A DNA stretch of 64,000 bases from Chrysomallon squamiferum (lineage: Eukaryota; Animalia; Mollusca): contig CM022677.1 in assembly GCA_012295275.1 (NCBI GenBank), forward strand, positions 21,080,001 to 21,144,000. The letters are read 5' to 3'. The stretch's first letter is position 1, and the number at the start of each line of letters is the position of its first letter. Under the pieces are notes generated by a model that did no database searches, had not been told where the DNA came from, and saw nothing but the letters and a program-made list of their open reading frames with translations. This document shows, piece by piece, positions 9,915 to 41,653 of the stretch. The translations under genes were made by a program, and so were the position numbers.

Positions 9915-11350
9915 ATGAATGTTATCATCTTCGCATTAACATCAACAGTCTTCATCCAACTTGCAGCTTCTGCACAGTGTCCTTCACAATGTCGTTGTCA
10001 CAGCTCTTGTTTTATCTATCAAGTCGTTTGTCCACCATTACCAAATTCCTTTCCCAATCTATCCATTCTGGCAGAAGAGACAAATCCTATTCGACTTGTT
10101 ATACACCTCCATCCTTCCAAGACGTTATCCAAATCAGATTTCCCACTCAATTCAACAATTACTACTCTTCAAATTAAATCCAAAAGTAGCCCGTCCATTG
10201 AAAGTGACGCTTTGATCCGATTGGCACCTTCATTGAGATTTCTCTGTCTTCAAAATAGTGGACTATCATTTAAGAAAAGAATGACGTTTTTGAAAGAACT
10301 TACGAAACTGGAAAAGCTTGTACTAAGCAATAACCAGCAAATGGACGGCGTTCTGCATCAATCCTGTTTCACTGACCTAAACCTCGTCTCTCTGGCGAAC
10401 ATACAGCTAGACAACTGCAACATTGCATATATAAGAGGACAGCCTTTCGACGATTTAGAGTCAGTTCGAATTATAAACCTGAGTTCTAACAGATTGGAAA
10501 AGCTGCACCCAATCTTTGACTATATTACACATCTTACGTTTCTGAATCTGGGAAAAACAGCATTAAAATAATTCGAAATGAAGACTTCAGAGGACTTGGT
10601 AATTTAGAAACTTTGATACTAAGTGACAACCAACAGTTGACTTTTCAGTCAAACTGTTTCAAAGAATTAAATACGGTCCTGGAGAAGCTTGTGCTGCGAA
10701 ACTGCAAACTACATGACGTACCAACTTGCATTCGTAATTTCTCCAAATTAAAAAAACTCGATCTTGCTGACAATCCGCTTACATTTTTCACTAGAGAATC
10801 TATCGAAGGAGAAATGTGTCTCGAAGAACTTGATGTCAGTGGAACAAACTTTCCATTGTCAGGAAACGTTTTCAGTGCACAAAGAAAATGTTTAAAAAAA
10901 TATCACTAAACAAGTCGAAATTTAATTGCAGTTCCCACACAGGCTTTACAAAATTTGCCAAATATTAAAGCAATTAATTTGAGAAACAACAAAATAAAAT
11001 CTGTATCAGCAAACGCGTTCCGAGGCTTTCCTATAACTGATCTGGACTTGTCTGAAAATCCACTGAGCACAATTGATGCGAACTTCTTCAGAAATTTTGG
11101 GTTTCATCTTTCTGTCGGTTTTAAGAAAACTAAACTGAAAGAAGTGGATTTCATACGTGAATATAAAAGAGATAAATTTCGTAAAATTGATTTGATGGGT
11201 ACAAATCTTGTGTGTAGCTGTAATCTGTATAAAATCATGCTTGCTTTACCTAAGGAAACACTTCACGGATATTGCATGGATGGCGTGAGGAAAGTATTTT
11301 TATGGAGCAACGGTCGAAATCTTATTTACAAAATAAGTACAAGTGTGACA
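9915..11350 (+). CDS. Gene B LRR exon (signal peptide, LRRNT, LRR array, LRRCT)
   Basis: [28 protein letters not shown]; LxxLxLxxN repeats; LVCSCNL..C..KYKCD ending A|GTGAGT. Indels relative to gene C at ~10550, ~10895/10913 and ~11298. Confidence 0.85.
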
Positions 11351-40700: not shown

Positions 40701-41653
40701 TGTACACCATTATTGTTTACATTTATGATTAGATTTTACATTTATGATTAGATTTTACATTTATGATTGAATTTTACATTCATGATTAAATTTTTACATT
40801 TATGATTAAATTTTACATTTATGATTAAATTTTAAATTTGTAAATAAGTTTTACCTTGCATCATTAGAATGTTTTTTTTTTTTATATTGATAATTTACCT
40901 TGATCATTTAAATTTACATTCAAAACAATCATTAACATTTACATACATAATTATCTTTTATCATTAAAATTTACATTCATAATTATTCTTGACATTAAAA
41001 TTTAGATTGATAATTATTTTAAGATCATTAAAATTTACGTTAATTGCTATTATTGTCATTAAAATTTAAATTAATAATTATTTCATACATTAAAATGTAC
41101 ATTAATAGTTTGTTGGGTTTTGGGGGATTTTATTTTGCAATTAAAATTTATACTCATGATTGCCTCTTAAACTTACCTGATTATTTTTTGTCATTAAATT
41201 TTACATTTATAATTTACGTTTATCGTTATAATTTCCAACAAAAAATTAAACTTATCATAGAAGTATTCATTTATCTATAGGTTAAATGTATATGGTGAGT
41301 TATATACTGACCTTTATGGGTTTGTCATATTTAGGTTATTTATTTATGTATGTATGTATGTATGTATGTGTATGTATGTATGTATGTATGTGTATGTATG
41401 TATGTGTGTATGTATGTATATATGTGTGTATATATGTATGTTTGTGTGTATGTATGTATGTATGTATGTATGTATGTATGTATATGTGTGTATGTATGTA
41501 TGTGTGTGTGTATGTATGTATGTATGTATGTATGTTAGTATGTATGTATTTATTGTTAATTTGGTTTGTTTTGTCTTTCTTTACAGAAGAAAAAACAAAG
41601 CTGATAAGCAGGCATCAGGAAAAGTCAATGTCGGTTATACCCCTAAAGTTTAG
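27277..41653 (+). CDS. Gene C: signal peptide-LRR-furin site-9xTSP1-TM receptor (one frameshift as assembled)
   Basis: Exons 27277-28716, 29159-29188; TSP1 29578-29769, 30620-30811, 31640-31834, 32722-32913, 33979-34170, 34855-35046, 36348-36539, 37498-37689, 39761-39931; linkers ~30165-85, 31099-113, 32264-78, 33188-217, 34452-66, 35885-929, 36999-37025, 38311-37, 38604-48, 38974-39018; TM 40547-40637; tail 41587-41653. Confidence 0.78.
29159..29188 (+). CDS. 30-nt exon encoding furin-type site (N)RRSKRNADR
   Basis: tgtAG|ATAGACGAAGTAAAAGAAATGCAGATAGAG|GTACG; phase 1-1. Confidence 0.8.
29578..29769 (+). CDS. TSP1 exon C1
   Basis: 192 nt AG/GT; VNGAWSTW..CSDTCGSG. Confidence 0.9.
30620..30811 (+). 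CDS. TSP1 exon C2
   Basis: 192 nt AG/GT; VNGGWTEW..CHATCGKG. Confidence 0.9.
31640..31834 (+). CDS. TSP1 exon C3
   Basis: 195 nt AG/GT; VNGKWSTW..CSVSCGGSG. Confidence 0.9.
32722..32913 (+). CDS. TSP1 exon C4
   Basis: 192 nt AG/GT; VNGGWGMW..CTTTCDSG. Confidence 0.9.
33979..34170 (+). CDS. TSP1 exon C5
   Basis: 192 nt AG/GT; VNGGWTEW..CSVTCGGG. Confidence 0.9.
34855..35046 (+). CDS. TSP1 exon C6
   Basis: 192 nt AG/GT, missed by the ORF track; [45 protein letters not shown]. Confidence 0.88.
36348..36539 (+). CDS. TSP1 exon C7
   Basis: 192 nt AG/GT; DGGWGTW..CSATCGQG. Confidence 0.9.
36571..36745. repeat. 21-bp minisatellite (gttcttgttggtagtgctgta)n; second array at ~37721-37845
   Basis: About 7 tandem units directly visible. 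Confidence 0.85.
37498..37689 (+). CDS. TSP1 exon C8 (recent duplicate of C7)
   Basis: 192 nt AG/GT; nearly identical to 36348-36539, offset 1150 bp. Confidence 0.9.
39761..39931 (+). CDS. Divergent membrane-proximal TSP1 exon C9
   Basis: 171 nt [33 protein letters not shown]. Confidence 0.85.
40547..40637 (+). CDS. Gene C transmembrane exon
   Basis: tttcAG|AG ... ACC AG|GTATTA; EFSFSNPYSIASIAACGIIITFLGVSWLCTR; phase 1 to 2, like the other TM exons. Confidence 0.8.
40715..41215. repeat. Degenerate ~20-bp tandem repeat (ttacatttatgattagatt-like)
   Basis: Near-perfect units at 40717-40830, decaying downstream. Confidence 0.7.
41587..41653 (+). CDS. Gene C terminal cytoplasmic exon
   Basis: ttacAG|A then RKNKADKQASGKVNVGYTPKV*; an alternative frame is open to 41711. 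Confidence 0.6.

Follow-up and report, generated by a model that had tools for sequence, protein, structure and literature searches.

A tandem gene family of the snail Chrysomallon squamiferum predicted to encode receptors with a leucine-rich repeat head and a thrombospondin type 1 repeat stalk

Exon structure of genes B and C

A stretch of 64,000 nucleotides from Chrysomallon squamiferum (assembly GCA_012295275.1, contig CM022677.1, positions 21,080,001 to 21,144,000 of the forward strand) was analyzed, which is called the window in the following and to which all positions refer. The window is AT-rich, with a GC content of 21–40% per 2 kb, and microsatellites are abundant. It contains, in this order, the 3′ part of gene A, the genes B and C, the remnant D, and the convergent minus-strand gene E. 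The main subjects are gene B (9915–24589) and gene C (27280–41653), which are both located on the plus strand and likely encode type I membrane proteins with a predicted length of about 1,200 residues, composed of a leucine-rich repeat (LRR) head, a predicted furin site, and nine thrombospondin type 1 (TSP1) repeats. It is highly probable that this architecture of signal peptide, LRR head, furin site, TSP1 array, and transmembrane (TM) segment is real.

The first coding exon of gene B (9915–11350) encodes a predicted signal peptide (a hydrophobic N-terminus), an LRRNT domain, the LRR array, and an LRRCT domain, and ends in a phase-1 donor. It specifies about 480 residues when it is read through four breaks in homopolymers. 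The next exon has a length of only 30 nt (12567–12596) and encodes the motif RRKR, the predicted furin site. It is followed by nine phase-1 TSP1 exons of 189–192 nt each (13139–21422), which start at 13139, 14480, 15433, 16427, 17565, 18699, 19643, 20828, and 21234, and by five interspersed 15-nt linker micro-exons at 15079, 16113, 17217, 18256, and 20417. Three small stalk exons are predicted at 21830–21862, 22482–22514, and 22981–23007, and the frame is open as far as the TM exon (23456–23525; 19-residue hydropathy 2.77). The tail (23857–24589) consists of a basic exon (23857–23906), which is one base short in an A6 run, and the last exon (24508–24589) with the motif ENQGF.

Gene C has a non-coding first exon, the 3′ end of which (26689–26718) and the adjacent intron (26719–27233) were recognized from an RNA loose end before 27232. 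The contig with this loose end has 6 differences from the window in 132 letters and may represent an allele or a paralog, and donors matching this exon are present upstream of gene B (about 9194) and of gene D (about 42699). The first coding exon (27280–28716) again comprises the predicted signal peptide, LRRNT, LRR array, and LRRCT, contains one break at about 28445, and ends in a phase-1 donor. The 30-nt exon with the predicted furin site RSKR (29159–29188) precedes nine TSP1 exons (29578–39931), which start at 29578, 30620, 31640, 32722, 33979, 34855, 36348, 37498, and 39761 and are interspersed with Ser/Thr-rich linker micro-exons of 15–45 nt. The TM exon (40547–40637; hydropathy 2.16) and the last exon (41587–41653), which encodes a short basic tail with the motif NVGY and the stop codon, complete the gene. 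The model downstream of the LRR exon comprises 22 exons in one open frame of 727 residues ending at 41653; all of its introns are of the GT-AG type and in phase 1 up to the TM exon, and the frame contains only a 10-residue linker, the TSP1 repeats, short linkers, the TM segment, and the tail. The tails have lengths of about 22 residues in C and about 45 residues in B. The type I topology rests on the single hydrophobic segment of each model and the open frame, with a predicted join between the TSP1 and TM exons.

A first-pass annotation of the window had proposed that in both genes the LRR exon is spliced via a 30-nt exon to the TSP1 exons. The A/GTGAGT donors at 11350 and 28716 and the AG acceptors at 12567, 13139, 29159, and 29578 were all found to be present, and the exon models likewise bear out that in each gene nine TSP1 exons are followed by a TM exon and a short tail. 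The claim of a 30-nt phase-1 exon also held: among the 74 open candidates of the type AG-30 nt-GT on the plus strand of the window, only the exons of B and C contain an RxK/RR motif, which we take to be the furin consensus. The linker micro-exons, which have lengths of 15–54 nt and are situated between many of the TSP1 exons, had been absent from that account. Their choice is a prediction from splice signals. Because they are in phase 1 and their lengths are multiples of three, the frame is unchanged if any of them is omitted.

Several peculiarities were observed within these arrays. In gene B, the sites at 13860 and 19304 (plus strand) are micro-exon-like with a conserved acceptor and a lost or weak donor, which suggests switched-off linker exons. 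At 14263–14524 (plus strand) the acceptor and the first 46 nt of the second TSP1 exon of B are present in four copies (unit length 65 nt, matches of 100%). A stop codon in frame follows each of the three upstream acceptors, and thus this repeat could give rise to a secreted LRR-TSP1 form or be an assembly stutter. A similar doubling of 31 nt is present in gene A (5652–5714).

Transcription and integrity of the LRR exons

Sequencing reads of four runs, i.e., the RNA runs X6 and X9 and the DNA runs X1 and X2, were compared with the region 27200–29222. An X6 contig of 258 nt matches 28489–28716 with 0 differences and stops exactly at the donor of the LRR exon, with 30 letters left over. This is the length of the next exon, and the leftover is not among the three loose ends listed for X6, a run for which three contigs are counted as partly placed. 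The X6 depth in the bin 28696–28763 is 4.26, exactly as expected for a stop at 28716. In the intron bins 28764–29103 the RNA depth is 0, while this region is covered in the DNA run X1. In addition, the RNA loose end behind 29188 represents the start of the TSP1 exon at 29578 (29 of 30 letters). The joint between the LRR exon and the 30-nt exon of gene C is thus strongly indicated, and it is very likely that the LRR head, the furin exon, and the TSP1 repeats of gene C are present on one transcript. The stop of the contig at the donor, the empty intron, and the joint between the 30-nt exon and the TSP1 exon together indicate that the read-through open reading frame (ORF) at 28602–29024 is not used in X6.

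These results bear on the alternative that the LRR exon is a separate gene, possibly read through into a hydrophobic tail, and the TSP1 and TM exons belong to another gene, or that the genes are decaying pseudogenes. It would agree with the LRR-only nature of every full-length relative (see below), with the open hydrophobic read-through of gene C to 29024, and, in its second form, with the six frame breaks in the assembly and the truncation of gene D. Yet 0 RNA contigs extend past the donor, and the 30-nt exon, which is devoid of a start of its own, is joined to the first TSP1 exon in RNA. In gene B a stop follows 3 codons past the donor, showing that the read-through is not conserved, and the frame of gene C is intact over 22 exons. 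We therefore regard this alternative as very improbable. The case that the first-pass annotation had named as a refutation of its own proposal, an LRR exon ending in the read-through ORF, is devoid of RNA coverage, and its view that the LRR ORFs are the N-termini of the TSP1 genes is backed by RNA joints for C and by homology for B.

The LRR exons of B and C exhibit a DNA identity of 82% (1215 of 1476 columns). Compared to C, the exon of gene B has four single-base indels, at about 10550, 10894, 10912, and 11298, and a TAA at 10907–10909, while that of gene C has one single-base indel at about 28445. A fifth break of gene B is the basic tail exon that is one base short. The donors predicted in the first pass are therefore present, although the LRR exons that they terminate are broken, and B is in frame only if the breaks are allowed for. 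All six frame breaks lie within runs of at least three identical bases. Single-base breaks in homopolymers are the pattern of an unpolished long-read assembly. A DNA contig of run X2 with the flank of B contains six T instead of the five in the window, and six T restore the frame. Two DNA contigs ending at the break of C have the in-frame form, together with nearby differences from the window that may mark them as paralogs or alleles. The ratio of nonsynonymous to synonymous substitution rates (dN/dS) between both LRR exons is 0.41, which argues against pseudogenes. Taken together, the frame breaks are probably assembly errors.

The X6 contigs also gave information about further copies. Of 54 RNA contigs, 29 are only 90–95% alike to the window, and therefore further paralogs are transcribed. 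The depth of the DNA contigs rises 20–35-fold over conserved LRR stretches, a value that is a hint only and not a copy number. At 27720–27914, about 190 nt of the LRR exon are missing from or substituted in contigs of both X6 RNA and X1 DNA, an indication of paralogs whose central LRR block is divergent.

Relatives, origin, and neighboring genes

The LRR head matches the Pfam family LRR_8 with an E-value of 4e-33. The AlphaFold model of the LRR domain of C (pLDDT 88) shows 14 concave strands within its first 400 residues, and its best fold matches in the PDB are LGR4/5, LINGO-1, and TLR8, with 17–28% identity. Full-length relatives belong to a gastropod LRR-only family of 510–580 residues from Haliotis, Patella, and Babylonia, including XP_046569684.1, XP_067671599.1, and XP_071106136.1 (Haliotis), KAK6170528.1 (Patella), XP_076461505.1 (Babylonia), and P0214. 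All eight relatives with a displayed organism name are gastropods of these three genera, and the cephalopod host implied by the first-pass annotation, which had named suckers, was not upheld. The LRR identity is 44% to P0214, a piece of 429 residues, and 32–35% to the Haliotis clade, and the order LRRNT-LRR-LRRCT is collinear. The automatic names of the relatives (LGR5-like, chaoptin-like, ALS, LINGO, lumican) are not informative. The Haliotis relatives have consecutive accessions, i.e., they are arranged in tandem, as are B and C. The 1,123-residue "chaoptin-like" protein P0206 (Haliotis rubra XP_046569595.1) seems to consist of two neighboring LRR-only genes of a tandem that the annotation has joined.

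The relatives differ from B and C in their C-termini. They end about 30–75 residues after the LRRCT with a hydrophobic tail and have neither a furin motif nor TSP1 repeats nor a cytoplasmic tail. In 19 of 19 relatives examined the hydrophobic tail is at most 10 residues away from the C-terminus, and an RxK/RR motif is present in the last 90 residues of none of them (0 of 19); this count leaves out the chimeric model P0122 and the fused P0206. The tail is called glycosylphosphatidylinositol (GPI)-like as a hydropathy feature, without a GPI predictor; Dolan et al. made tentative GPI calls from the same C-terminal hydrophobic feature (PMC2235866). The LRR exon in the window ends one residue past the last cysteine of the LRRCT, while the relatives continue into a stalk and the tail, and thus the exon boundary coincides with a domain edge at the place of the presumed swap from LRR head to stalk.

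A TSP1 profile matched 0 of 356 retrieved proteins, and eight later ones were checked for length and tail only. Among the best 120 of 279 matches of a protein search with the LRR domain of C no TSP1 Pfam family was present, which is weak evidence, and all of them were local with 22–35% identity. The best 150 of 16,515 matches of a representative protein search were mostly giant generic LRR proteins, and a search with one TSP1 repeat yielded 0 matches among only 15 candidates, which is uninformative. Among the 92 and 267 pattern matches of metagenome scans there was no relative, and the LRR and TSP1 clusters obtained from the ESM atlas were all generic. A quick tree placed B and C on a long branch beside P0214 (99), within a subclade that contains Haliotis (98).

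B and C are probably derived from the gastropod GPI-type LRR-only family and are not ordinary members of it, because in gene C the RNA breaks off at the LRR donor and goes on with TSP1, and because the read-through of B stops after 3 codons. As the relatives have a GPI-like tail and 0 of the 356 proteins have TSP1 repeats, it is likely that a GPI-type LRR gene gained the furin-TSP1-TM module by exon shuffling, and the replacement of the short anchor by this module appears to be the simplest reading.

The TSP1 repeats of the stalk (TSRs) have six cysteines, the motifs WxxW-x7-C and CxxS/TC, and a net positive charge in 18 of 18 cases in B and C. By profile and fold they match thrombospondin-1, UNC5B, and properdin, and they belong to the TSR superfamily as judged from the six-cysteine repeat with WxxW and CxxS/TC and the three-stranded fold. 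Their first and second strands are each longer by about two residues, and they score just below the cut-off of Pfam TSP_1 (C1, 19.6 compared to 21.6 bits) or do not match it (B1). The third tryptophan, i.e., the full ladder WxxWxxWxxC, is present in 0 of 18 repeats; one to three tryptophans occur in TSRs (PMC12990085). In a tree of the TSRs, the A, B, and C repeats (22 repeats, all except for C9) were separated from the E repeats (94/99). The former are mostly not paired by position, and therefore re-duplication inside each gene is suggested. This tree is weak and of poor resolution, with stars on 2 of its 34 inner branches and an unsettled bootstrap, and was used only for this split and for the pairs C7/C8 and C2/C5. 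C7 and C8 arose by a recent duplication (dS 0.10). C9 has its best scores with E repeats (7 of its top 8), and the TM exon of C resembles that of E (score reached in 12 of 2000 shuffles), while A and B have a TM cassette in common (0 of 2000 shuffles reach the score).

The neighboring genes are related to B and C. Gene A (70–7871, plus strand) is the 3′ part of an upstream paralog, the 5′ end of which lies beyond the window. It contains 5 TSP1 exons, linkers, a TM exon (7179–7251) that is the same cassette as that of gene B, and a last exon with the motif ENPAF. Gene D (42881–44564, plus strand) is a copy with a large internal deletion. It retains the 5′ third of an LRR exon (ATG at about 43104, frameshifted, end at about 43600), a fragment of a stalk intron, and a C-type last exon with its 3′ flank, and the exon signal on its promoter side is kept. 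Gene E (47676–63700, minus strand) is a convergent TSP1-array gene with its N-terminus beyond the window. It has at least 14 TSP1 exons of the lengthened type, a TM exon (49598–49502), and a longer tail with NSAY. Its last exon ends in SVI, presumably a PDZ-type motif. A probable fifteenth TSP1 exon near 58200–58500 is scrambled by internal repeats, and one intron harbors a minisatellite of 2.8 kb (52799–55582), the unit of which measures about 46 nt. A dispersed element of about 400–480 nt (79–90% identical), possibly a small transposon, is present at 2289–2785, 8141–8698, and 24871–25800. It occurs in inverted orientation within an intron of gene A and again in the intergenic DNA behind A and B.

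Taken together, B and C belong to a gastropod receptor family that is transcribed and has expanded in tandem; its full architecture is apparently undescribed and is built from two well-known modules. The earlier suggestion of a locally expanded, apparently lineage-restricted family was supported.

Putative function and comparison with known systems

We hold it to be probable, with considerable reserve, that exon shuffling turned a gastropod GPI-type LRR gene into LRR-furin-TSR-TM receptors that serve as cleavable surface receptors for adhesion and uptake. According to this proposal, the short GPI-like tail would have disappeared from one member of a tandem LRR-only cluster, which would have acquired a TSP1 array in phase 1 together with a TM/tail cassette. 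The fused gene would have been duplicated in tandem, the TSP1 exons re-duplicated inside each copy, and the C-terminal cassettes swapped, so that A and B share one and C resembles E. In the secretory path, a furin-type convertase would cut behind the RxK/RR motif, and the LRR head might be shed or stay loosely (non-covalently) bound and recognize a conserved partner. The basic TSR rod, likely C-mannosylated and O-fucosylated, would remain on the cell as an adhesive arm that could bind polyanionic surfaces such as glycosaminoglycans and microbial envelopes. The tail lacks a signaling domain and likely directs only endocytosis or sorting. A putative role as a cleavable adhesion and uptake receptor without a signaling domain is assumed to be likely.

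A different role would be that of a diversified immune or symbiont receptor, in which the LRR domain is a variable microbial sensor similar to TLR or VLR proteins and the TSR array a mere spacer. The tandem expansion with many transcribed paralogs would fit such a role, TSR proteins promote symbiont colonization in Aiptasia (PMC5446238), and a survey in Elysia treated them as candidates for plastid receptors (PMC7663992). The pooled dN/dS values of the TSRs (simple counting, partly saturated) are 0.57 (A), 0.58 (B), and 0.32 (C), and the TSRs of A and B are under relaxed or mixed selection, with several pairs near or above 1, which also agrees with diversification. However, the faster-changing part is thus the TSR array and not the LRR domain. 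On the concave LRR face, 47 of 59 positions are identical between B and C compared to 246 of 348 elsewhere (p=0.21, two copies). A hypervariable LRR face was therefore rejected for these two copies, and the model contains neither a TIR nor another signaling domain. This role is thus considered unlikely.

The concave LRR face has a dN/dS of 0.28 and is thus under purifying selection, which would be in accord with a fused receptor-ligand pair, in which the LRR head binds glycosylated TSRs as the RTN4R/Nogo receptor binds TSR3 of BAI. Binding could occur in cis after furin cleavage or in trans with partners on adjacent cells, including products of gene E, and would form a cell-cell recognition code. 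The binding of a C-mannosylated, O-fucosylated TSR by a GPI-linked LRR protein is established for RTN4R and BAI1 (PMC12990085, PMC11990869), Nogo receptors are listed as GPI-linked extracellular LRR (eLRR) proteins (PMC2235866), and the ancestor of B and C is likely of the GPI type. Both glycosylation motifs are found in 18 of 18 repeats, and WxxW and CxxS/TC fit the consensus for C-mannosylation and for O-fucosylation by POFUT2 (PMC12990085, PMC11990869). RTN4R is, however, not among the top fold matches listed, so that the link is the generic LRR fold only, the repeats are lengthened and devoid of the third tryptophan, and the analogy is the sole support; we judge this idea to be quite unlikely. 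A complex prediction for the LRR domain of C with repeat C1, performed without alignments and without glycans, gave a score of 0.00, which is no verdict and was not used for or against binding. Even less probable is the extension of this idea that a snail lineage fused a GPI-type LRR protein with its glycosylated TSR ligand class into a single receptor of two parts that is cut by furin, yielding a combinatorial surface code for self or symbiont versus non-self, and thus an undescribed invertebrate recognition system. In this case the gene would have been multiplied, each TSR would be a frame-preserving cassette on swappable TM/tail modules, and diversity would arise by paralogs and exon skipping.

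The short tails without a signaling domain and the basic ectodomain with Ser/Thr-rich linkers could alternatively belong to a matrix-anchoring or shell/cuticle protein, with a shed LRR head and a tethered basic TSR rod organizing the organic matrix of the shell or the extracellular matrix at the mantle surface. The motifs NVGY (C), ENQGF (B), ENPAF (A), and NSAY (E), which we take to be of the sorting type, are kept in the tails and argue against this role. TSP_1 domains are abundant in lophotrochozoan shell-matrix proteomes according to PMC13425148, but the accessible text of that article mentions LRR 0 times, and overall this matrix role seems rather doubtful.

Returning to the cleavable adhesion and uptake receptor of shuffled origin, several points weigh against it. 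The RNA joins are confined to the 5′ part of gene C, so that the TSP1-TM and TM-tail joins and all joins of B are predictions; they stem from one RNA run, the metatranscriptome X6, and the joint between the LRR exon and the 30-nt exon is indicated by the end of a contig rather than by its own letters. The second RNA run, X9, reached 7 of 30 bins and did not extend over any joint. The read check of the breaks of B covers one of five, and B might, like D, be a recent pseudogene. The indel table of the read contigs is empty and lists no gap at 28445, and the break of C is thus not directly disproved. A full-length LRR+TSP1 protein was not found in the protein searches, leaving the whole chain without an independent counterpart. 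The LRR tree is a quick one, with a long-branch warning for the placement of B and C, and the assignment of signal peptide, GPI tails, and furin cleavage is based on simple checks of hydropathy and motifs only.

If the adhesion and uptake receptor of shuffled origin is accepted, the birth of a receptor family can be traced from a tandem LRR-only gene to a descendant with a cleavable TSR stalk and its subsequent expansion. Both LRR ectodomains and TSR arrays play central roles in the immunity of invertebrates, in the uptake of symbionts, and in the recognition between cells, and if the head binds the stalk or microbes, these proteins are a directly testable candidate for molluscan self/non-self recognition. 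The significance is limited by the facts that lineage-specific domain shuffling is common in invertebrates, that one LRR+TSP1 transcript has been tabulated, and that the function is predicted only.

The first-pass annotation had regarded the architecture as not assignable to a known family. For the full layout this stands, as no description of a signal-LRR-furin-TSP1n-TM family was found in open-access PMC and bioRxiv articles (subscription papers were outside this scope). It does not stand for the LRR half, which belongs to the gastropod LRR-only family, nor is the combination of LRR and TSP1 wholly unreported, which counts against full novelty. LRR8 is named among new TSR domain arrangements in Elysia in section 3.2 and the legend of Figure 4 of PMC7663992, and supplementary file 2 of that article lists the Elysia chlorotica transcript c117363_g1_i1 as "LRR_8*3 + TSP1*5". 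Compared by this table row only, it combines both domains in one gastropod protein as B and C do, but it has 5 repeats, is listed without a TM segment, and is annotated as hemicentin-like. In mussel, separate expansions of TSP_1 and LRR are described (PMC5836269), and in the accessible part of PMC10084454 TSP1 is listed only for Unc5 and semaphorins.

Several known families were considered and rejected. A Toll-like receptor is contradicted by the short tails, which do not contain a TIR domain, the LIG (LRR-Ig/FN3) and Slit proteins by the absence of Ig, FN3, and EGF domains after the LRRs, and LGR4/5 by the absence of seven TM segments (7TM). Chaoptin is an all-LRR chain of about 1,300 residues, and the chaoptin-like matches were local with 23–31% identity. 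The six-cysteine TSRs with WxxW and CxxS/TC are shared with THSD7A/B, Sema5, UNC5, BAI/ADGRB, and properdin, a soluble analogue. In contrast to these TSR proteins, B and C have an LRR head and no Sema, Ig, GAIN/7TM, ZU5, or death domain, and BAI/ADGRB, UNC5, and Sema5 were rejected because the modelled exons contain one hydrophobic segment and no GAIN plus 7TM, Ig plus ZU5/death domain, or Sema plus PSI combination. The mega-thrombospondin (PMC6526912) resembles B and C in that it belongs to the thrombospondin vocabulary and has LRRs at its N-terminus. It is, however, a secreted protein of more than 2,700 residues with the TSP C-terminal region and cadherin/Ig domains rather than a TSP1 array with a TM segment, and it was rejected because B and C lack the TSP C-terminal region and cadherin domains.

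The survey of eLRR proteins by Dolan et al. (2007; PMC2235866), which covers worm, fly, mouse, and human only and whose main text contains 0 mentions of "thrombospondin" or "TSP", distinguishes the classes LRR_Ig/FN3, LRR_Tollkin, LRR_Other, and LRR_Only. B and C share signal peptide, LRRNT, LRRs, LRRCT, and type I TM segment with these proteins and would fit the catch-all class LRR_Other. A functional parallel to their pair of modules is offered by the RTN4R/Nogo receptor and TSR3 of BAI, a GPI-type LRR protein and a glycosylated TSR partner (PMC12990085), with the difference that these are two proteins interacting in trans, whereas in B and C both modules are part of one chain with a predicted cut site between them.

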